A stretch of DNA of 64,000 bases from positions 868,001 through 932,000 of the forward strand of contig CDLV01000011.1 of the NCBI GenBank assembly GCA_001244265.2. The letters run 5' to 3'. The stretch is from Microbotryum violaceum. Its lineage: Eukaryota. The position numbers were made by a program, and so were the translations under genes. The notes beneath the pieces were generated by a model. It had not been told where the DNA came from and did not search any database. It saw nothing but the letters and a program-made list of their open reading frames with translations. Of this stretch, positions 42,970 through 60,105 are shown one piece after another (within the stretch, counting starts at the first letter, position 1; each line of letters starts with the position of its first letter).

Positions 42970-44691
42970 ATGTTCGCACCCCAGTCAAACTCGTCGCCTT
43001 TCCGCAACAACTCGTTCGGCGCCGCGTTCGGCAACACCACCTCGGGCGCCAACAACACCTCGTCACCCGGTGGGACGTCGTTCAACCCGGCCTCGACCTC
43101 GACCAACCAGAACCAGAACCAGAACCAGAACCCAGCGTGGGGCGCATCTTCATCCTTTTACGGTGCACAACCCAATCAGCAACAAGCGCAGGGACAACAA
43201 CATGGTCAACAGCAGCAGCACGGACAGCAGGCACAACAAGGCCAAGGACCGGTCTTTGGTAACTCGCAGGCGTACTCGAGCTGGAACCAGCCCGCTCAAT
43301 CGAGCTACAACCACCACACCAATGTTGCATCACCCGCCACGGGCGGTCTATCGAACCAGGGTACCCCCTTGGGTTCCCAGCCTCCTCGCAAGAACTACCT
43401 CCCTGGATACCTCTCGGGTGGTGCCGCTCTGGGACAAGTCAGTCTCTTCACTCTTCGCTCTTTCACCGCTCAGCTGCTGATCCTTACTCGATCATTTATC
43501 CAGTCCGAGTCGAGCCCTGACTCCCCCTCATTCAACCACCAAGAAAACTCGCGAGTAGGCACGAGTGCATGGGATTCGCCCATGCCGAGCGCCTCCGAGT
43601 CGAGCATCAATCGGAGGTCGTCCTTGTCCGGCTCGCCTGGATCCTGGTTCGGGGCGAGTCAATCCTTGTTCGGAACTTCTTCCCAGAGGGACGCGTGAGT
43701 TCTTCGCGTGGACCGGGTTATATAAGATTCAGCGCTCATAACTCGTTGACGAGACGTCCCCTCTCACAGCTCAAACCCCGCCCGTTCACCATCGAGTTTC
43801 ACCACCCGTCAACTCCCCTACGGTCGCAACAGCCATCTGTCGTCTCAAAGCGCCATGGACGACGACGCACCTCCCATTTCGTCGCTGAACGAATTCACCT
43901 CGGACAATAACACCCTCCCTTCTTCCCTCACTTCGGCGACGAACGCTTCCTTGTCCCCCTTTTCTCCGACCCACACCCCTCTCGCTCCCGCATCTTCTTC
44001 GCACACTACCAACTCGCCCGGATACCCCGTCCACATCTTTGGATTCCCTTCCACCTCAACCGAGACCGTGGTGTCCTACTTTTCCCAATTCGGCAGCGTC
44101 GAATCGTGCAAGGCCTCGGAAGAAGGAGGGAATTGGCTCACCTTGGTTTACAGCGAACCTTCTTCGGCGTTGAGGGCGAGTCGGAAGAATGGGGTCGTTT
44201 TGGGGAGGGTGTTAATGGTCGGGGTCAAGGTGGTAGATGAGGAAGAATTGAGGAAAGCAATTGCTTCGGTCTCGGGGACAAATTCGTTTGGGAATGGGGC
44301 CGGAGAAGGCGAGAGGGAAGGTGCCTTGACAACCACGTCAACGAATACCATAACGGGTGCAGGATCGAACATCCAAGCCATGGGGAAAGCCAACGGTCTC
44401 AACGCCGTCGGCGCCGGTTCGTCTAGTGGTCGGCCCGTCAACGTCCTCGGCCCCCAACAAGCTTTCAAAGCCACGCCCAAGAAATCCTTTCTTTCCTCCG
44501 CCGCGCAAGCAGCAGCTTCGTCGGGGACACCTGCTTCCAAGCGAGAGGGACGCGATGGATATACGAATCTGTTTGAGGATAAACAGAGCATCGCACAGAG
44601 AAATGCGACGGGGATCGTGGGTGCTGGGCCGGGGAACGCGGGCGGGAAGGGGGTGTTGGGCAAGGTTAGTGATGCGATTTTTGGGTGGTGA
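42970..44691 (+). CDS. NUP53: Nucleoporin Nup53/Nup35
   Basis: YLPGYL motif, Nup35-type RRM (IFGFP...FSQFG...GNWLTLVY...ALRASRKNG) and C-terminal amphipathic KVSDAIFGW. Two introns. Confidence 0.9.
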
Positions 44692-45717
44692 GGGTAAGAG
44701 GGGACGCGTGGTGTGTATCCTGTTTAAGCGAGGAATGGAGCATGGTATTCTTATGACTGTCGGATATCCCTGATGCTTACAAAGCCTCGATCTCGAGCGT
44801 CGACAACTTGAAGTTCGGCCGTGAAGGTCGGCCCTCCCTATCCCTTCCTCGACCTGACTCACGTGGCTCCCCACATGAGATGAGGTCGGGCTGAAATCAC
44901 GTCTTGTTGATCCTCGACTCGTCATAATCTGGGAGGCCCAAATACAAGAGCAGCTCCTAGATGACAAGTGACTTCGGGACATCTCCTCGGATCATCCCGA
45001 CTAAGCCGATAACCCGAAAACTCGGCGTCATCCTCTCCTCTCCTTTCGCGCCGAATTCCCGAAGGACACCCTAGTCACAGGACTTCATCTAAAGTTGGAA
45101 TTCACATGTCAAGTGAATCGATCGCCGACTGGAGCAGGTCATCTCGACCATTCTGGCGTGTCCGGATCCTTGGAAGGAATCGTTCCCGTCCCCGAACGAG
45201 AAGGCGCAGGGGCGTTTTTGGCCACTGCACCACCGCGCGCAGCTAGATGGGCGTTTGACGTGCGCCCGTGCGAGCCCGTGCACGAGGAAGCGTGCGCCTT
45301 GGAACGGCCACACATGGCTTGTTGCAGCCCTTTGCTTCTTCGCCCCACGCCTCGCACACATACTCTTGTCCTATCGCCGCGCACCGACCACTCAGACTCA
45401 ACCCCTCCCCTCCCCTCCCAACAGACACTACTTGTATCCACGTTCCTGTGTGTGTTCCTGTGTGTGTGTGTGTGTCCATCACGCGCACCTCTGTCGAAAA
45501 CGTCAGAGCGTTTCTCGCTGTCGTCGGTGGTCGTCGGTGGTCGTCGTCGTCGTCTCTCCCCACATTACTCACGCCCGCCTCGACGCATTCCCCACCAAGC
45601 CAACCCGGCCTCGCCCCCTCATCGTCGCGCCATCGTAACCTTCCCATCTCCGCGATCCGCCGCCTTCATTCAACGTAGCTCGTGAATCGGCCTTTTCCGA
45701 CCACGGCTACACCAAAT

Positions 45718-48296: not shown

Positions 48297-48824
48297 AACT
48301 CGACGCTTTTCCTCATTTTTGACCGTATCCACCTTTGCCGCCATCGACGATTACAGGATCTCGCGCCATCTCGAGATATTCCTCTTTTTGTTCTACGCCC
48401 TCCTCCCCCGCGCGCGCTCGTCCTTAGTCAATGTGAAACATCTGCTCCTTCCACCTCCATCCCTCCACCTCACCCCATCCTATCGACGCACGTGCCCCTT
48501 CCTCCCCTAGTTATGTGTACGAAAGTTTCACCCCCAGTTTGGCGTTCTTCATCTTTTTTTGACTACCTACCTAGCTCGACTCAGATGAAAGCTCGAAGCA
48601 CTTGAAATTCCTATAAAGAAGATCCCAAAATATGTGGCTTCGGTGGCGTTTTTTCAGAGAGCTCGGCGGAACACTGGAGCCAGAATTTATCTTCGGTTTG
48701 GTGGAGGAATCCCGGTTGATTGGGTTGCAAAATAAAAGGTGAGAGGCGGAGCCAATGCCCCCTTTGGGCCACAGAATCTTCAGGTTCGAGATGGGGTTGT
48801 CGATTTGGATACCAAAAAAGTCCC

Positions 48825-48908
48825 GGGAGTCAGCCGGGATTCGAACCCGGGGCCTCTCGCATTTTCTAACCCAAAGCGAGAATCGTAAACCGCTAGACCA
48901 CTAACCCC
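48825..48908 (-). tRNA. tRNA-Pro(UGG) with an 8-nt intron
   Basis: Acceptor stem GGGGTTA/TGACTCC; D arm with TGGTCTAGCGG; anticodon stem CTCGC/GCGAG with loop TT-TGG-G[TTAGAAAA]T; T arm CCGGG-TTCGAAT-CCCGG. T6 terminator downstream and an AT-rich TTATTAAT about 30 bp upstream. Confidence 0.95.
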
Positions 48909-48971
48909 AGCGTACGAGCTTACGCTGCTTTTTGGCATTAATAAGTTTAGAAGCATTATTCCCCCCATTTC

Positions 48972-51368
48972 GACTGGAGGCATGCAACGAATGGCCGGCT
49001 CAACACGGACAAGACGGTCGTCCTACCGATCGGACGCCGCTGGGACCCGGGGCAACGCCCGCTCGTCGTCAAGGCCGCAGGCGAGTCGCTCGAGTGGATC
49101 GGCCTCCCCTTCGACCCGAGCGGCGACACCGAACTCGCCTACGCGAATCTCATCGAACGCCTCGAGGCGACGCTGGAAGGGGTTCAGCATCGCTGGCTCA
49201 CACACCACACCCGTGCCTTTTACGTCAATTGGTACGCCATCCCCAAGATCCTGCACTTCCTTGCAGCCGACATCCCGCCGCCCGAAGTCGTCAAGAAGCT
49301 CGATGACATGCTCGTCGATTTCGTCCGTGGGGGCAAGGGCAGGACCAGCTACGGCAGAGATATCGTGTTCACAGCCAAGCTCAAGGGGGACTCGGGGTGA
49401 TCAGGATGCAGGACGTCGTGGACGCGGTTGCGGCACGGATCTGGGACGTTCTTCTCGGCGGTTCGGGCGCGATCTGGCAAGGACTTGCGCGCGTGGCACT
49501 CCAGCGAGCTCAGTCCGACCTCGACCTGGCCACCGATCTCTGGCCACATCCATCCACTCCCATCCCCAGCGACCTCCATCCCCGATGGCGAGCAGCATTG
49601 GGGGTTCCGAAACAGCAAGACGCGCAGGTCAACCCGAGGACCTTGACCACCGCGAACCTGCTCGCGCTTCCCACCTTGCTCGGCAGCCTCCACACCCCAT
49701 CAGAGGGAGACAGACCATCGACGCGGTTCATATACCTGACTACCTTCGTCTCCAGGGCTACCCGAAGGTGGCGGATCTCTACCGGCGCGAGTTGTATGCG
49801 GGTGGGGGGTTTCACCTTTGGACGCCGCCGGCGGATGTGCTCGGCGACAACAGCGAGTACGATCGACGCGGGCTCCCGCAGCGACTGGCAATCGCGGCCT
49901 GGTACCGGTTTACTGTCGATCGACACAAGAACACGCCCTTGGCGGTGGCGGTGGCGGCAGGACGGCTCAACGTGCCTCCCCGGATCGGCACCAGCGCACC
50001 GCTCGAGGCGATTCTCCCCAAGCCCGTGGCCCGCTTCGCAATGGAGCAGCGCCTTCCGGACCCGGTGCTTCCACAGCAGGCGAGCCAGTACAAGCTGCTG
50101 AACATGGCTCGACCGTACACCATCCGTCGCATCCGCCGGGTCCTGAACGCGAAGGCCTTTACCAACACGCTCGGGCTCAAGGGGCCACCGCAGCCGGACG
50201 ACCTCAGGAGCTTTTGGAAGGCGGTCAACTCGAAGGCACTGACGGCGAGGGAGAGGGAAGTTTGGTTCAAGCTGATTCTCCGCTTCACCCCGACGCGCAA
50301 GCTGCAACACCAACAGAATCACGACACTTCTCCGCGTGCCTCGTCTGCGAGGCGCCGGTGGACGACACCGACCACTACTTTTTCGACTGCGTTGACTCTG
50401 GGAACGTTTGGATCGCGGCAAGGAGCGTGCTCTGCGACGCACTGGGGCTCGACACGATCGACAACACGCATTACACGGCTGTTCAACGCATGTTCGGACT
50501 TCCGAAGCTCAAGGCCAGTCTACGCGATCAAGAAGGAGCGGGGAGGACGATCGAAATATTCACCGGGCTGGTCTTGGAGATGATCAGCAGCGGGAGGTGG
50601 GGGATGCAAAAGTGGGGGACGGGGATGGAGGGTGTTGGGAGGAGGAGGATCATCTTGGAGGAGAGGTTGAAGCTGAGGGCGGGAGGAGCTTGGGGGAGGA
50701 GAGGGCAGTAGAGGCTGGGTTCGACTTTCCCCCCACCACCACTACACACACACACACACCAAATTCTCGTGACATTATTTTCTCCTACTGTACACTAAAT
50801 AGATCGCTTTCATCTTTCATTTGTTACAGGTTCATCGTTGCGGATCATGGACCATCTCGCGATTTGGCGTCGACTCGGTGTGGCTCGCGCTCTTCGGCTT
50901 CGGGGTTCTGAGTCAAGGGAGGGATCAGCGGACACAGGCAGAAAGTCGGCTTTGAGGGGCCAGGGACTGCCGATGGGGGAGGTTTTGAGGGACCTTCACC
51001 GCGTCTTGTTGTGACTGAGCAGAGACTTGGAGCGTCGAGGGTCGTGGTGGTTGCGCAGTCGTGCTCTTGTCTTCGTCTCGACCGAGTGGGAAGTGGCTGT
51101 GGGGTGGGCCTTCTGTCGTTAGTACATTTCTTTTCTTTCTTTTTCTCTTCATCTCTCTTTCTCTCTCTCATTAGTCTCCGGGGGGGAGCAACCGCTTGGC
51201 TAGGGCATTTGAATCCGAATCTCGGATTGGTGGACTTGGCTCGTTTCTCGCACTTTTGCGGGCGGTTTGTGTTATCATCGTAGTCTTCCATCTAGTTTTT
51301 CCGTAGGCCAAAACAGGGGGAACAGGAACTGGGGGCAATATGATGAACGTTTTCTACAAAAAAAAAAA
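48972..51368 (+). mobile_element. 5'-truncated L1/Tx1-like non-LTR retrotransposon, family A copy 1
   Basis: Begins inside the end of the RT (ATNGRLNTDKTVVLPIG), followed by GGLGVI, WFKLILRFTPT and C-terminal zinc finger CLVC...HYFFDC. ORF2 stops at 50711; ~650-bp 3' UTR; A11 tail at 51358-51368. Confidence 0.92.
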
Positions 51369-52170
51369 CGGGCTGGTCTTGGAGATGATCAGCAGCAGGA
51401 GGTGGGGGATGCAGAAGTGGGGGACGAAGATGGAGGGTGTTGTGAGGAGGAGGATCATCTTGGAGGAGAGGTTGAAGCTGAGGGCGGGAGGAGCTTGGGG
51501 GAGGAGAGGGCAGTAGAGGCTGGGTTCGACTTTCCCCCCACCACCACACACACACACCAAATTCTCGTGACATCATTTTCTCCTACTGTACACTAAATAG
51601 ATCGCTTTCATCTTTCATTTGTTACAGGTTCACCGTTGCGGATCATGGACCATCTCGCGATTTGGCGTCGACTCGGTGTGGCTCGCGCTCTTCGGCTTCG
51701 GGGTTCTGAGTCAAGGGAGGGATCAGCGGACACAGGCAGAAAGTCGGCTTTGAGGGGCCAGGGACTGCCGATGGGGGAGGTTTTGAGGGACCTTCACCGC
51801 GTCTTGTTGTGACTGAGCAGAGACTTGGAGCGTCGAGGGTCGTGGTGGTTGCGCAGTCGTGCTCTTGTCTTCGTCTCGACCGAGTGGGAAGTGGCTGTGG
51901 GGTGGGCCTTCTGTCGTTAGTACATTTCTTTTCTTTCTTTTATTCTCTTCATCTCTCTTTCTCTCTCTCATTAGTCTCCTGGGGGGGAGCAACCGCTTGG
52001 CTAGGGCATTTGAATCCGAATCTCGGATTGGTGGACTTGGCTCGTTTCTCGCACTTTTGCGGGCGGTTTGTGTTATCATCGTAGTCTTCCATCTAGTTTT
52101 TCCGTAGGCCAAAACAGGGGGAACAGGAACTGGGGGCAATATGATGAACGTTTTCTACAAAAAAAAAAAA
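51369..52170 (+). mobile_element. Heavily 5'-truncated family A copy 2 (~800 bp)
   Basis: Near-identical to 50564-51368, starts directly after the poly(A) of copy 1, and ends in A12. Confidence 0.92.
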
Positions 52171-52183
52171 TGTTAACCCGATC

Positions 52184-53370
52184 GTGACGAAGGCAACGAA
52201 GAGGTTCCCGATTGCTCGTCATATGTACGAGCTCGTGTTCGAATCCGACCAGGCCTGTCTCGAAGCCGCTGCAGCGGGTCCATTCCCCTATCACGGAAAA
52301 GAGATGGTCACCGAGCTCCCGAGTGTTTCCCCCCTAAACCACATCGTCCAGGTGCGATTCACCTTACCCTCCTCTTCCAGCGCGATTCCCGCTTCCGTGC
52401 TCCGAAAATCTCTCGACGCTGCTCTCACTTCCTCCTTCGGCCACGCTGGTTGCACGCAAGGGTATACCCTCATGCAATTACAGCGGGGCCTCGCGGTCGA
52501 TCCGAACGGTGACCCGATGGCCATGACCGAAGACGGGTTCCACTGCGCGTACCTTCGCTTACATGCTGATCTTTTCCAAGGCTCCACCGAGACGCAGAAG
52601 GCTGCGCTCAACGCCGCCTTGCCACAAGAGATCGAGATCCTGGGCGCCAAGTACGGCTTGCGACACGAATTTGAGACGCACTACTGCGCCGTGTGCGATC
52701 GCGCCGGACACCAGTGGGGGCTTGCAGGAAGCCGGTTTCGACTCCGGCCACCGCCGCCCCTGTTCCGGGGGCCTCGACTTCGACTTCGACTTCGACCACC
52801 GGCTTCCGAGTTGCCGGAAAGAATGGGAAGCACGGTGGGCCTGCCGCATTGAACTCTCGTGCCTCTGGCACGAACATGATCCAGCTGGGACCTCGTGCTA
52901 ACCCCGCAGGTGCAGCGACCGGCAACAAGGACGATGCGAACGACGGCGACGGTGACGACGACGACGACGACGGCGAATCGGTCGCTTCGACCGAACCGGA
53001 GGGCGGCGACACTGGGAAAGAGACGTTGACCCGTGCGACCACGGGCCCAACAAAGGAGACGCAGACGACGACAGCGGCGCCCGTTTCGACCCCGACCTCT
53101 CCTTCGCCTTCTACTTCTGCTCCGGCATCGCCTTTGTCCGGTGGCACGTCGGAATCATCGGCAACCGCGACGACCTCGATAGCCTCGACGAGTCCTCGAC
53201 GCCTTCGTTCGAGCTCGGCACCCGGCAACCGACGTGTCACCCGGGCGGGATCCGCCATGATCCACGGTGCATCAGGGGGTGACGACTCAGGGGGCAACAG
53301 TTCAGGGGGTCACAGGTCCGAGATGACCGAATTCGAGGGGGCGGCGCTGATCCAATTTATTCATGATTGA
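52184..53370 (+). CDS. Retrotransposon ORF1 (gag-like, probably 5'-truncated, one frameshift)
   Basis: CAVCDRAGH...C knuckle split by a frameshift in a G-run near 52718. The Ser/Thr/Asp-rich tail ends FIHD*. Confidence 0.75.
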
Positions 53371-56300
53371 GTCCCTCACCGTGTTGACGTTCAACGTCCG
53401 ATCGATCAAGAACGCAGTCAACCAAGTCAAAATCATCCGCTATCTCAAAACCCTTCGGCCGGCCCCTGCGGCCATTCTCCTGCAAGAGCACCACCTCAGC
53501 TACAACGCGTTGCGCGAAGGCTTCGAGAGTGCTTGGCCAGGAGCTTGTATTCGTTTCGCACCTCATGTCCTTACCCTTATACCCGATGGCTCACCTCTGG
53601 CGGGCCGCCTCCTCTCCTCTACCCCGGTCGTGTTTGCAGAAGCCCCTCAATTCGACGGTCGGATCCTGCGCTCGGTGTTTCGTCTTGAGGAGCTCGATAT
53701 CGAGATCATCAACATGTATGCGCCGGTCAAGGGGGAAGAACGTCGCGACTTCTACGGGCTCCTGCACTTCACCGCTCCGGGGCCCAAGACTCTTCGGATC
53801 TTGGCCGGCGATCTCAATGATTGTCCGGATGTATCGGTCGACCGAGTGGCCATCACCGATCGCGCTTGGACTCCTGTATCGCACTGGCAGACCTTGCTGT
53901 CAAAGATCGCATTCAACCCACTCGACACGATCCGACAACTCCATCCATCACCCCGGCATTCACTCGCCCTCACTACCTTGGTAGGGGGGACAAACGAGAA
54001 ATCTGCTCGTGGTCGCGGATCGATTATATCCTTGTCCAGCGCAGTTGGGCAAACCGGTTGTTGAGCGCTTCCACACTTTTCGATGCGCCCTGCTCGGACC
54101 ACAGACCTGTAGTTGCGACTTTCGCATTGCCTACATCGAACGCTGATGCCGAACCCCCCTTTCTCTTCCCTCTACGAGCGATTTCATTTCGAGGCTCAAC
54201 CCAACGGTCTTTGACGATCAAGACTTTGTCGCATCGATTCCCGGGGTCGTCGACGAGGTCTATCGAAGGCTCGAGGGGACCGCTCCGCTCGGCGACGTCT
54301 ATGACGCCGCTCTGCGGGCGGTTGCAGTCGCTGGCCATGCACGATACCGCTCGACTCGTGCCGACATGCGCCGACTGCGGGCCGAGAACCAATCCGTCAT
54401 GGAGGCGCTGGAGGCACGCGGTGAGCATATGAATGAGGCCGAGCGCGATGCGTATGCTCTCGCCAAGTCGCAGTTGGATCAGTTGGCAGTAAAGGAGGCT
54501 CAGTGGCTGCGCATTCGTGCGCATGTGCCGTCAGTCGACTCGAGGGAAGGTCAATCGGCAAGCATTCGCACGCGTCTCAACCGCCGGAGTCGCCAGACGA
54601 GCATCGTCTCGCTGGAGGATGTGGATGGCACCGAGACCGTTGACATGCAGGAGGCGCTGGGTATTGCTTCACGGCACGCACAGTCGCTCTTCACGCCGGA
54701 CCCAGCTCGTGGCGACCCGACGAACCCACGTCGGTCCCTGCTCGACCCTATTCGCGCGGCGAAATGCTACGATGACGACCGCTCGGACCCTACGTTCGGT
54801 CGTCGGCTGCCCCTTCAAGCCAGAGTGGCGCTTGACGAGCCCTTCAACCTTTCCGAGGTCGAAGCGGCGTTGAAGAAGACGGATTCAGGGCGATCACCGG
54901 GGCTTTCGGGCATTCCGTATGAGCTTTTCAAGGCGCTGCCGACCTACTTCGCTCCCAAGCTGTTGGACTTGTTCAACTCGATTTGGGAGGGCGGCAAAAT
55001 GACGGCGTCCTTGGCAGAGGGGCTGGTGCGGCTTTTGCCCAAGAACAAACCGGGGGCCAATCTGAAATCACTGGGGGCATATCGACCGATCACACTGCGC
55101 GAGACAACCTACAAGGTCCTCAGCAAGGTCTTGGTGGCGCGACTCAATGGGGTGCTCGGCGAGCTTTTGCCGCCGGCGCAACACGGGTTCATGCCATCAA
55201 GACGTTCAGCAGACGCGGGAAGTCATCTCACTCTCCTTCTCGAAAAACTCAAGTCGCTAGGCACTGAAGTTTTCCCGAGGGCGCCCTCTTGTCCTTGGAT
55301 CAGCAGAGCGCGTACGATCGGGTCGATCACGCATGGATCTTCGACGTCTTCGAGGCCTTTGGCTTTGGTGAGCGTTTCATTTCCCTGCTGCGCGCTCTGT
55401 ACGATCCCGAGACTCTGGGGGTGCGCTACCTCATCAATGGGTTCCCCACGGAGTTGGTGCGGTTGCTGTGTGGTCTCGGTCAGGGGGATCCCCTCTCGTG
55501 CCCGGTTTGGAACATCACGTTCCAGCCCTTCCTCGACGCCCTCGTTCGGCGCGGGATCGCGCTCGACCTGCAGAAGGTGTGGCCAGGGGGGCCGCGTGCG
55601 CAGCTTACGCATCTGGCGTTTGCCGACGATGCTGTGGTGGTAGTGGAGTCACCGGCGGCATTGTCGAAGCTGGAAACGCTGTCGCAGACGTGGTACGAGG
55701 CAACCAACGGGAAGACCAACACGGACAAGACGCTGGTGCTACCACTCGGACCGAACTGGCTTCGGGACGAGACTGCGCAGGCGCTGCCAACGGTGCAGAG
55801 GAGGGGGAGAGCTTCAAGTGGTGCGGCTATGCCTTCTTTCGCCATGGTGACTCGAAACTGTTTTGGACCCATGTTCTTGACAGGATCAAGGCCAAGACCC
55901 GCGCCGCTGGAGACCGGACACTTTCGCCGAGTGGGAAGGTCTTCTATGCCAACGCTCACATCATCTCGACGGTCCTCCACGTGCTGTCCTTCGACATACC
56001 GCCTCAATGGTTCATTAAGGCGGCGGAGACAGCACTTACGGATTTTGTTTGGGGAGGAGCAGGGCGAAATACCGTCGCTCGCGATTTCGTGTTCCAGGCT
56101 CGGGAGGACGGTGGCTTGGGCTTGATTTCAATCGGCGACATCGTTCATTCGGTGGCGCTTCGATTTTGGGATGCTGTGGCGGGCTCGAACGAGGCGATCT
56201 GGGCGCCCCTAGCTCGCGAGAGCTGGAGGTCCCTCGTCGCTGCGACCCGCGATTTCAGTCCGTGGGGGTTCTTCAGCAGCACGGCTCGGGTCGAGAAGCT

Positions 56301-57362
56301 GTATCGCGACTCGACGCGCTGGGGGGCAGTCGTTGCAGCTGCCAGGGTCACAGTTCCAACCATCAAGTCCGAACTCCTTACGCTCCCCGAATTGCTCTCG
56401 CTTCCGCCTCGCCTCCCTTCACTCTATGCTGAAGGTGCCAAGCACGCATATGACGATGCGGACGCAGTGGCGAAGTTTGCGCAGATCGCGGACCTGTACT
56501 GGAGGGACGAAGGGAAGGGCTGGGCTCTGGTTGGTCATCGACGCGGGTTCTGGCAGCACTCTAAGGAACCCGCCCTACAGCACGAGCACGTGTGGTCGCG
56601 CGTGGGTCAGTTGCTCAAGGCGAAAGCCTTGCTGGCCAAGACCGCGTTGCGACCTGCTCGGATACCTCTCAAGGAGGCTCCCCGTCCTCGGTGCTTCAAC
56701 TTCTTTGGGCTCACCCGACCGTTCACTATTCGCAAGCTTCGTCGGCTTGTGAACGTGGTTCGGTTCCCAGGGAGGGAGGATCGTGTCAAGCGTTTCCGTG
56801 ATGGGACTTCTCAGAGCGATAGGAAGCGCTTCTGGAGATGGCTTCATGACCGGTTCGCGTCTGCTGTGGAGCAGGACACCCACTGGCGGCTCATGTACGA
56901 CGTGACGCCGACGCGCAAGAGGCAGCATACTCAGGGTCATGCCTCTTCGCCGACGTGTCTGTTCTGCGGCAACGATGCAGCGGTCATCGAGACGGTGTCG
57001 CACTACTTCTTCGAGTGCGCGTACTCGACCAGCTTCTGGGGTGGGGTGCTTCGCATTCTGTTCGACAAGCTGGGCATCGAGGATACCGACGTCGATCCGT
57101 CGACGTTCACTCCGGAGCAGCTGACTATGGGGCTCCCCCTTTTGCGGGGTCGTGGAGAACGACCTCGAAATGGATGTGGGTTCGGCTGGCTTGCGCGATC
57201 GGCTTCCAGCGGCTGCACCTGCTCCGCTGGCGCGTTCATCAGCGGTTCGAGCTGGACAACGTCGTGGCCCCTCCCTCGCTCCCCAGTGCACTCAGAGCGT
57301 TCGAGCGAGATTTTCTCTCTCGAGCGGGTTTTGTGCCTGGGGCTCGAGATTGGGAGGTGTGA
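53363..57362 (+). CDS. Retrotransposon ORF2: AP endonuclease, reverse transcriptase and zf-RVT (about five frameshifts)
   Basis: APE motifs TFNVRS, LLQE, NMYAP, AGDLN, SRIDYI and SDHRPV. RT motifs SPGLSGIPYE, YRPITL, QHGF, LDQQSAYDRVDH, GLGQGDPLS and FADD. Zinc finger CLFC...HYFFEC. Confidence 0.93.
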
Positions 57363-58345
57363 TGACCGAGTTAAGTCCTTCCTTCCCATTTTCTTCCCCT
57401 CCTTTCCTCCCTTCTTTTTCGGAGGTCGACTTCTCTTTCAGAAGCTGACTGTCTCGAAACTTGTTGCGCAGTGGAAGGCTGCGCACCTCTCTCTCTCTCT
57501 CTCTCTCTCTACTTTGCGCAGTAGCGGTTTTCGTTCTTGGATGGATCGGCAAGCCAGTACGATCGTCTTTGCGTTGGAGGCTTTGTGAAGGTTTTCCCTC
57601 TCCTTTCCCCCCTTTTTCCCTTCCCTTCCTCTTCTCGTTCCTGTTGCTCGGTTGTTGACTACGCTTCAGCCACTTCTCCTTTTACTCCTAAGCCGTGTGT
57701 TGAATTCCGTCGAATGGTTCGTTCGTTCGCGTTGGTCAAGATCTACGGCATGGCTCGGGAAGAAAGGTCGCTCGTCTTTTGGTCAATATCCTCGCATCAA
57801 GGCGAGGCTCGTTTCGTTATACTGGATCGCTTTTCTCTCGGCCCCGACGGCTCAACAGCCAGCACTCGAGATTCAGCCAAGGGAGGACATCAGGCGTTGT
57901 CGGGGTGACGAGTAGCTGGGGCTTGGCTGCGGCCTGTTAGTCCCTGGGGACCTCTACCTCCGGCTTCGACCCCCTCCCTTGGCCCCTCGGGTGTGTTCCC
58001 CTCCTCTCTGTCTTAGTATTCCTGGTTCTCCGTATCCCCAGTCGTGACTTTCTGTATACTCTCCCCCTTCTTTCTCTAGGCGCTCTTGCCTGGTTTTCGA
58101 GTGTCTTCGCTCCCGCTCTTAGGACGTGAAGCGGCAGCAGTACTCACCGCCCGTTGGAGTCCGCGTTAGGTGCTCGGCGGGCTTTGATCTGCGCAGCGCT
58201 CTTTGCGCGCAGGGGATTGACTTTCACCCAACTGCTTGCCGTCGTTGCTTTATAACCTCCTTTAGCTCTTTTTGTAGCGGTCCCAGCCAACCCGAAGGAT
58301 TGCAATTTGTGAGCCCCAGTCAAAAAATAAAAAAATAAAAAAATA

Positions 58346-58478
58346 GGAGTCCGAGTTAGGTGCTCGGGGGTTTCAAGTTGCGCGCAAGGGCTTAACTCTC
58401 CCTATCTGTTTGTCGTCCTTGCTTATGATATTCTTTCAGCTATTCTTGAAACGGTCCCAACCAAACCGAAGGTATGCG
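58346..58478 (+). mobile_element. Diverged 3'-end remnant of family B
   Basis: GGAGTCCGAGTTAGGTGCTCGG...CGGTCCCAACCAAACCGAAGG aligns with 58156-58305 with many substitutions; no poly(A) remains. Confidence 0.8.
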
Positions 58479-60105
58479 ACCCAACCCTAGAATGTTTCCT
58501 GAGCGTGAATGTCGGATTATAGGGCTGGATTAGGAGGTTTATGAAAGGCACGCTGTCTCAGACAGCGGAGCCTCACTAGTGACCGAAGTTATATGGATTA
58601 CAACTAGCTCCTGGTGTCAGCTCGATGAAGATACCATAGTGCTGAGACAGGGAACATCAGTGCTCACCTAGCTTCTGGTGTCAGCTCGATGAAGAGAGAG
58701 CTGAAGAAGCTAGGCACGCGCAATCTCTATTTCTAATGCCTGTGGCCCGTCGTCAGGCCTTGCCGTACAGTTGGCGGCATCAACGATCGAGCAAGTTCTA
58801 TTATACATTCCCCATATAGTGGAGGTGCTTACATGTGATCTTGCTCAGGATAACATCAGATCGCAAGGCTGAGGATTATTTCCACAAAGGTCGTTCTGCG
58901 CCATCCACCCTTTCTTCATTGGGGAAAAGCCGACGTTCGAGAACCGTTGGAGGCTCCTGCCTCCTGTGCGGCTGGCCTGACGCGATACCCCGGGTCCCAG
59001 CCTTGCGCGGACACACCTCGGTGTTTAAACTGGTGCCTATGCATCTGACCAAGCGCAAATTGTCCGAACTTATCTCTGAGAATCAATACCTTCGCGGAGT
59101 GGCCAACAGGAGCCTGGAAACTCAGCGGAGGCCCGCAATGGCTTCGATGACGTCGTGCGCGTCGGCGTCGGGGTCCGAGTCCGAGCTCCGAGACAGCCGC
59201 TATTTGCATGGCATGGAATCTGGGACTTCGTTTGATCTTGAATATGAAATGTGCTTGGCTTGCGGATATACCCATGTTCCATAGAAAATGTTGCGAGTTG
59301 CGGGCTGCATGTTTGACAGCTCCGCAGTCTCGGGATATGATCGTTTTTTTGATGCTGCACTGTTGTGAACACCTGTGGTTGACGATGGTGTGAAATCCAA
59401 CTATTTCATTTTCAGATGATGGGCACGACTGGAACGTTCGGGGCCGTCTAGATCTGTTCACGTGACCCAAGGGGCGTGTGACGACTGTCTCGGCTGAGTG
59501 TATGCGATCCACTGAGCGGTGAGAACCATGATTATGAGGGCAAATTCGGTGGAGTCCAAATTTGAAAAGGAGCACAATCTTAAAGCTTCAAAGGGAGGAG
59601 GAGGAGTAGATATTCCACCATCGTTGTTTTAAAGACTCACGAATAAAGAACTTGAAATAGCCCTGCTCTGAACCCTCCGATATCCGATCCTTTGGTTCCA
59701 TCCGGCCAGAGCGGAACAGCGTGAGATCCCGGCCAATCCCGACCGGTACACACGGGCGTCGGCCATGGGCGACCGCGTACTGGGCGGGCAGTGGCGGGGC
59801 TGGGCGGCGGAGTTCAAAAGAGCCCACTCGGAGAACACTGGCCGACTTTGTCCTCCCTCACGTCTCGACCTGCTGTATATGGAATCGCCGTCACAATTTC
59901 AGCCCAACCAACGACTTTGACTCTGCATTCTAGCTGTTCCATCTTGAAGTTAGACTTGAACTCGTTAAAGGTGCAACCCGACGACCCGGGGCTTGAACGT
60001 TCTTGAACATTCAAGGCGCGCTGGTCGTCGTACTAGTCGTACCCACCACCCCGTCGCGGGACGCTCGCCCTCTCCTCCGCGACGGGCGACGAGTCGACCG
60101 CGACG

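Follow-up and report, generated by a model that had tools for sequence, protein, structure and literature searches.

A stack of truncated L1-like retrotransposons beside a proline tRNA gene of Microbotryum violaceum, and the processes that may have built it

How did four truncated copies of long interspersed nuclear elements (LINEs), which belong to the retrotransposons without long terminal repeats (non-LTR), come to lie head-to-tail directly upstream of a proline tRNA gene in Microbotryum violaceum? The locus is part of a 64,000-nt stretch of contig CDLV01000011.1 (assembly GCA_001244265.2, positions 868,001 to 932,000 of the forward strand), which was analysed as a whole and is called the window here; all coordinates are those of the window. 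An earlier reading of the same DNA, made from its letters alone and referred to below as the sequence-only reading, had noticed the stack and proposed that two related element families repeatedly used one site defined by RNA polymerase III (Pol III). The observation of a LINE stack at tRNA-Pro is confirmed here with small corrections. Placement of the stack beside the gene by chance is unlikely, and targeting of the tRNA gene is unproven. The explanation favoured below, at slightly less than even confidence, is that the stack was built by elements landing on A-tracts or on the tails of resident LINEs.

The stack consists of four 5'-truncated units on the plus strand, named A1, A2, B1 and B remnant after the families A and B, with gaps of at most 4 nt between neighbours (Table 1). 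The sequence-only reading had described the same four units in the same orientation, head-to-tail, and had seen retroelement homology by 48972, about 50-65 bp upstream of the tRNA gene; both descriptions hold, the boundary now lying at 48970. Its statement that no spacer DNA separates the units is correct for the A1/A2 and B1/B remnant joints and wrong for A2/B1, where 4 nt (TGTT) intervene. The left edge of A1 was drawn from tblastn matches, which begin at 48972-48975, and from a comparison of the window with contigs of four sequencing runs (of the 340 loose ends and 28 joints in these contigs, 24 and 15, respectively, underlie the results on edges and joints). In contigs of three other runs, longer A copies agree with the window from 48970 onward only; upstream of it they carry family-internal sequence, which sets the spacer at 62 bp. 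The truncation point of A1 lies inside the reverse transcriptase (RT) domain, directly behind the ADD motif and near residue 759 of the 1258 that gene model P0034 gives for open reading frame 2 (ORF2). The stop codon of its ORF2 (50709-50711) is followed by the 3' untranslated region (UTR), and its terminus reads GTTTTCTAC with an A11 tail at 51358-51368. A2 shares 97.9% identity with A1 50564-51368, and its tail is A12 (52159-52170). B1 is likewise 5'-truncated, because B copies elsewhere extend beyond 52175 on the upstream side, in one contig copy by 435 nt, and its reading frame shifts at about seven places. B remnant is a diverged copy of approximately the last 150 nt of family B, with many mismatches and gaps relative to B1 and no clear tail. 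A contig of run X1 covers 58287-58692 at a single-copy depth of 223.9, which indicates that B remnant shares no 31-mer with other copies. Self-comparison and tblastn found no further A or B copies within the window.

The positions at which most of the units begin are in keeping with A-tracts as landing sites. Three of the four units (A2, B1 and B remnant) start right behind an intact tail, with 0-4 nt between. Throughout the window, runs of at least 10 A occur only as the tails of A1 and A2, and a 20-mer with at least 16 A occurs only in the tail of B1. No target-site duplication was found around the array, since the best local match between spacer and right flank scores 6, a value reached by 72.7% of 2000 shuffles, and none was seen between units. 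Among the contigs of the four runs none shows an empty allele, and at other copies the contig flanks are too short to reach a tRNA gene.

The stack is not special to the proline tRNA locus, and joints between a tail and a truncated copy are common elsewhere. In a set of 88 public Microbotryum-related gene models (27 relatives of B1 and 61 of A1), 13 run from an intact LINE tail at once into a LINE truncated at a different point, a count that is inflated by the ATG which family A carries at its end. Eight family B models open with the translated end of family A and its poly(A) (P0003, P0005, P0006, P0008, P0012, P0017, P0020 and P0022). P0049 leads from A to A, P0077 from A to a third family and P0030 from B to A, while other tails lead into family A in P0037 and P0062. 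Joints of the A tail to B and to A were also present in contigs of three runs, entering B at 58283 and near 58220-58250 and A at 50202, 51284 and 51180; the filler measures 1-9 nt among those joints whose intervening letters are known. The summed contig depth, which is no strict copy number, is a multiple of the flank depth, about 39-fold in the 5' part of B, about 250-fold in the 3' part of A and about 480-fold at the 3' end of B, compared with only 134 tRNA genes. These values show that the families are abundant and strongly 5'-truncated.

Near the C-terminus of ORF2, A1 reads EGVGRRR and A2 reads EGVVRRR, variants that recur in 10 further gene models in the first case and in 8 in the second. 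Being typical of different subfamilies, they show that the units, at least A1 and A2, are separate retrocopies and not products of DNA duplication, and to this extent the view taken by the sequence-only reading is supported. The use of frameshifts as an age marker was rejected. At the A1 and B1 shift places 49384, 49694, 50331, 53336, 54153, 55273 and 57153, other copies have one additional G or C, and at 55797 they have two bases fewer (four runs in each case). Because other copies thus differ at every shift place, the shifts are not usable for dating; they may be private mutations or homopolymer errors of long-read assembly in repeats.

Judged by their domains, families A and B are two related non-LTR families of the L1-like type with an apurinic/apyrimidinic-type endonuclease (APE), as first proposed; the assignment is made at the level of "L1-like", within which the Tx1 subgroup would be a candidate placement. 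The two families are 31% identical in protein over 1235 aligned columns, that is, the whole of ORF2, and in both of them the endonuclease, RT and zinc-binding domain are laid out as in human L1 ORF2. Pfam Exo_endo_phos matches window 53351-54064 with E = 6.5e-4, which is below the curated cut-off, and matches family A gene models above it (P0034, 4.6e-9; P0046, 9.3e-8). RVT_1 reaches 1.4e-22 in P0016 and 5.8e-20 in P0034, and zf-RVT reaches 1.8e-6 for window 55372-57588. Family A gene models have all three domains above the Pfam cut-offs, and family B gene models have RVT_1 and zf-RVT. A Logan-derived relative, P0027, is collinear with human L1 ORF2p over residues 4-801 (E = 4.1e-30) and matches R2 more weakly (E = 1.3e-16). 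The A-type tails (A11, A12 and A6T-A7T-A7T) and the 5' truncation of all four units are likewise L1-like features.

The known distribution of both families centres on Microbotryum, which accounts for 26 of the 27 relatives of B1 and 61 of the 61 relatives of A1, the best matches being 98% identical. Outside the genus only traces were found, namely P0027 and two metagenome loci. The latter came from a metagenome scan with the ORF2 alignment, which gave two distant relatives, 48-49% identical (L001 3056-4172 and L002 10001-10439); both are 5'-truncated, and they come from the same metagenome and probably belong to a different fungus. No relative turned up in a scan of viral contigs, and a protein atlas gave only generic endonuclease-RT clusters without taxa. 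The ORF1 fragment of B1 has no significant match to a family A gene model (E = 0.39), and no Pfam family was found for it.

Among the gene models, a third related LINE family of Microbotryum was also recognised (P0075-P0077, P0079, P0080 and P0085). Its C-terminus reads ...KERLELRLAR, its RT thumb region shares about 50% identity with that of A1, and in P0077 it is stacked behind a family A tail. In P0067 and P0068, a copia-type integrase (PF00665, PF13976, PF22936) is fused to the C-terminus of family A, which indicates LINE copies directly beside LTR elements.

The gene on the other side of the junction is best read, from its predicted fold, as tRNA-Pro(UGG) with an intron after position 37. 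ARAGORN spans 48825-48907 on the minus strand and labels the gene Gln(ttg), whereas Rfam RF00005 matches 48826-48907 with 42.9 bits. In the Rfam alignment, the anticodon stem CUCGC/GCGAG encloses UU-UGG-G and 8 extra nt, which leads to the reading as Pro(UGG) with an 8-nt intron; this intron is not modelled by ARAGORN, hence its label. The identity and the strand are those given by the sequence-only reading, but the gene starts at 48907 and not at 48908. It is the only tRNA gene in the window, and a T6 terminator lies downstream of it at 48814-48819. Two intron-mode calls of ARAGORN (44648-44844 and 55006-56111) were set aside as implausible, with introns of 104 and 1013 nt. The spacer has a GC content of 42%, compared with 56% for the window, and contains TTAATAA at 48938-48944, 31-37 bp upstream of tRNA-Pro. 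On the side of A1 it ends in ...CCCCCCATT, the last letters being CCCATT, with no A-tract there.

According to the favoured explanation, several separate events of target-primed reverse transcription (TPRT) by poly(A)-tailed L1-like LINEs would have made the stack. The elements would favour A/T-tracts for integration, through a preference of both endonuclease and priming for A-tracts, and because such tracts are scarce in this GC-rich genome, the tails of resident LINEs would serve as the main landing sites. Every new copy would then take the same orientation, with its truncated 5' end joined to a tail and without a visible target duplication. The tRNA gene would be relevant only through its AT-rich 5' flank, which would have received the first insertion in the presumed order of events.

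A fungal relative with comparable behaviour is Zorro3 of Candida albicans, a member of the L1 clade. According to PMC1965478, 30 of 30 new Zorro3 insertions lay in poly-A tracts; they came with no large duplications or deletions and showed no link to tRNA genes. Such an A-tract preference, which experiments have established in this fungal relative, would explain the widespread stacking in Microbotryum. Zorro3 (PMC1965478, PMC3956500) resembles the Microbotryum elements as a fungal LINE of L1-clade type whose ORF1 has a zinc knuckle, whose ORF2 combines APE, RT and zinc finger, and which ends in poly(A); its insertions are bordered by A-tracts without target duplication. Of the four units here, three start behind an A-tract, and A1 has none on its 5' side. 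The poly-A tracts used by Zorro3 lie close to Pol II promoters, and its host genome is AT-rich, whereas the A-tracts here are LINE tails in a 56% GC genome; where the A-tracts are the tails of other LINEs, stacks would be the outcome. McGurk and Barbash 2018 (PMC5932611) describe tail-to-internal tandems of non-LTR elements as common in Drosophila and attribute them to repeated insertion at preferred sites. Those tandems are mostly dimers of one family, while the joints in Microbotryum are frequent and mix two or three families.

Several observations weigh against landing on A-tracts, which explains poorly why the stack starts at -62 of the tRNA gene, why A1 has no A-tract before it, although it is the unit at the spacer, and why the far unit looks oldest. 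For a random array end, the probability of lying no more than 62 bp upstream of some tRNA gene is ~3e-4 (134 tRNA genes in 26.1 Mb). The AT-rich flank raises the likelihood of chance placement, probably to no more than a few percent by our own estimate. Growth by landing on tails should make the rightmost unit the youngest, yet B remnant looks like the oldest, judging from its gapped divergence from B1 and the absence of a shared 31-mer. In addition, a 25,129-nt contig of run X9 matches the left flank up to 48966 with 2 differences; beyond this point it departs from the window for 35 nt and stops, as is usual for contigs that run into a repeat. A close relative may therefore carry another element beside the spacer, a possible sign of turnover on the tRNA side.

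Three processes, namely a fixed site on the tRNA side, landing on existing A-tracts and template switching, give the same picture of tails joined to truncated copies, and it is the features just listed that a Pol III-linked process would accommodate. As in TRE5 of Dictyostelium, element proteins would recognise TFIIIB or TFIIIC in the complex assembled on the tRNA gene; the nick would fall about 60 bp upstream, on the far side of the TATA-like stretch, and insertion would always be in the opposite orientation. New copies would enter between the spacer and the prior copy, so that the stack would grow from the tRNA side with the oldest unit farthest away. The divergence of B remnant, the changed sequence after a nearly identical flank in run X9, and the low chance probability per array end all suit this process, as does the presence of two families at one site, with A1 and A2 from different subfamilies. 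The genome is described as compact and gene-dense in PMC4469406, which for M. lychnidis-dioicae gives 26.1 Mb, 134 tRNA genes and 392 LINE copies, and according to PMC5006619 tRNA targeting has evolved in such genomes. From the 5' end of the mature tRNA to the junction the distance is 62 bp. The review PMC5911963 gives 40-54 bp for TRE5 and, for NLTR-B of Polysphondylium, 39-64 bp. Within the span of these ranges, the TRE5-type geometry put forward by the sequence-only reading is matched in distance, and it is matched in its opposite orientation too. TRE5-A and NLTR-B are similar in further respects, with APE, RT and zinc finger in ORF2, A-tailed and 5'-truncated copies, and a position tens of bp upstream of tRNA genes, which here applies to one locus. 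Their hosts differ from this basidiomycete, the table in the available portion of the review having such non-LTR elements from dictyostelids only (PMC5911963). A literature search in which supplementary tables lay outside the search found no description of tRNA-linked non-LTR elements in basidiomycetes, and the word tRNA is absent from the main text of the main Microbotryum transposable-element paper (PMC10502011). Against Pol III targeting stands the fact that a single junction carries the case, in contrast to TRE5-A, and that no target duplication is seen. For TRE5-A, target duplications measure 12-16 bp; here, apart from 4 nt, nothing derived from the spacer, neither a duplication nor a remnant, separates the units. 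B1 keeps only a 5'-cut ORF1 fragment, and a TRE5-like binding of ORF1 protein to TFIIIB, with targeting dependent on the B box, would be hypothetical here. Stacking is also widespread and can form without any tRNA gene; many copies lie on small repeat-rich contigs, with four LINE gene models on one 39-kb contig, and no tRNA or other Rfam gene was found in 3.0 and 10 kb upstream of the metagenome relatives, a weak point with two distant loci. A search for peptides of the reverse-complemented tRNA B box in the first 100 residues of 89 proteins gave 2 matches, both LINE coding, which says little as the models rarely reach a tRNA gene. Since only A1 adjoins the tRNA flank, there is no basis for counting four insertions at a site defined by Pol III. 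The repeated use of one such site, central to the sequence-only reading, is therefore not upheld: the other three joints connect a tail to a truncated copy, recur at many loci, and would arise from integration at existing A-tracts or from template switching without a Pol III gene. Pol III targeting is accordingly a reasonable but unproven reading that we hold to be possible, if less likely than not. It does not exclude landing on tails, as the founder could have been aimed at the tRNA gene and later insertions at tails.

Template switching would reduce the stack to one or very few events, in which RT jumps from one LINE RNA to the poly(A) end of another, so that a single insertion carries several truncated copies and the tRNA flank is hit once. 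Consistent with this, the units are fused directly and share a single orientation, the filler is limited to 0-4 nt and internal duplications are absent; the different subfamilies of A1 and A2 suit two template RNAs. Similar fusions of copies of different RNAs, in one orientation, characterise the MGL chimeras of Magnaporthe and the mammalian U6-L1 chimeras, and PMC2104539 reports double template jumps by the fungal LINE, with 33 bipartite chimeras and 1 tripartite one. A chimera from a single event is expected to have, as those chimeras do, one flanking target duplication and one tail at the end, neither of which was found here; B remnant looks far older than B1, and joints in 13 of 88 gene models are many for a rare side reaction, even though start codons in the A tail bias the count. 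We therefore regard template switching as improbable. A still smaller chance is given to a sequence-specific target unrelated to Pol III, such as a motif at the spacer end or at the element ends that survives insertion and lets the same bond be reused. The apparently precise reuse of one boundary without duplication is consistent with it, and Tx1-type relatives of L1 include sequence-specific families as far as the sources at hand describe them; no shared motif was derived from the 24 of 340 loose ends, and because the truncation points of the right-hand partners differ, the motif cannot be in those partners. Local DNA duplication or unequal crossing-over is suggested by the adjacency and near identity of A1 50564-51368 and A2, and is nevertheless very improbable. 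The repeat unit stops exactly at the poly(A) tail, the tails differ in length, the subfamily variants contradict duplication for A1/A2, and B1 and B remnant are separated by gaps and many mismatches.

Table 1. Coordinates of the tRNA gene, the spacer and the units of the stack in the window, with the basis of each assignment.
Feature	Position	Strand	Basis
tRNA-Pro(UGG), best reading, 8-nt intron after position 37	48826-48907	minus	ARAGORN, Rfam RF00005, sequence
Spacer, 62 bp, from tRNA 5' end to first element	48908-48969	.	sequence, composition, contigs of other A copies
A1, family A LINE	48970-51368	plus	tblastn, zf-RVT match, alignment to P0034, sequence, subfamily motif
A2, family A copy, last 802 nt only	51369-52170	plus	self-comparison, sequence, subfamily motif
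Filler TGTT, 4 nt, from A2 tail to B1 homology	52171-52174	.	sequence; other B copies diverge upstream of 52175
B1, family B LINE, 5' end cut	52175-58347	plus	Pfam, tblastn frames, translation, sequence
B1 ORF1-like fragment, CX2CX4H knuckle	up to 52852	plus	
B1 ORF2 N-terminal region	52870-53322	plus	
B1 endonuclease	~53351-54171	plus	
B1 RT	~54147-55800	plus	
B1 zinc-binding C-terminal part, then 3' UTR	stop 57360-57362	plus	
B1 A-rich tail (A6T A7T A7T A)	58321-58347	plus	
B remnant	58348-58478	plus	gapped alignment to B1 58156-58304

To the right of the stack, window 58540-58700 holds a small repeat with a 64-bp tandem unit (58601-58631 recurs as 58665-58695); near 58545-58565 there is also a short palindrome. 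In contigs from three runs one unit is collapsed, and some contigs in this interval reach about six times the flank depth, which indicates that the small repeat is dispersed in the genome.

A separate observation concerns annotation. A number of Microbotryum 'proteins' begin at ATGATG in the 3' end of one LINE, read its poly(A) as lysines and then enter the next truncated LINE (P0003, P0005, P0006, P0008, P0012, P0017, P0020, P0022, P0029-P0031, P0049, P0054, P0058 and P0077); some of these models cover two families and have at least 1900 residues.

If the link to the tRNA gene is true, it would be the first case of a fungal non-LTR retrotransposon for which Pol III genes provide safe sites of insertion. 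At least two L1-like families of Microbotryum would then be guided by the Pol III complex to a fixed spot some 60 bp ahead of tRNA genes, with stacks growing from the tRNA side. Such targeting would be an independent, convergent fungal parallel to TRE5 of Dictyostelium in a second compact genome, the non-LTR cases known so far being confined to dictyostelid amoebae. If targeting of tails is true, LINEs that need A-tracts in a GC-rich genome would land on each other's tails, and arrays of mixed families would result. In practical terms, many public Microbotryum gene models are artefacts that run from the tail of one LINE into the next.

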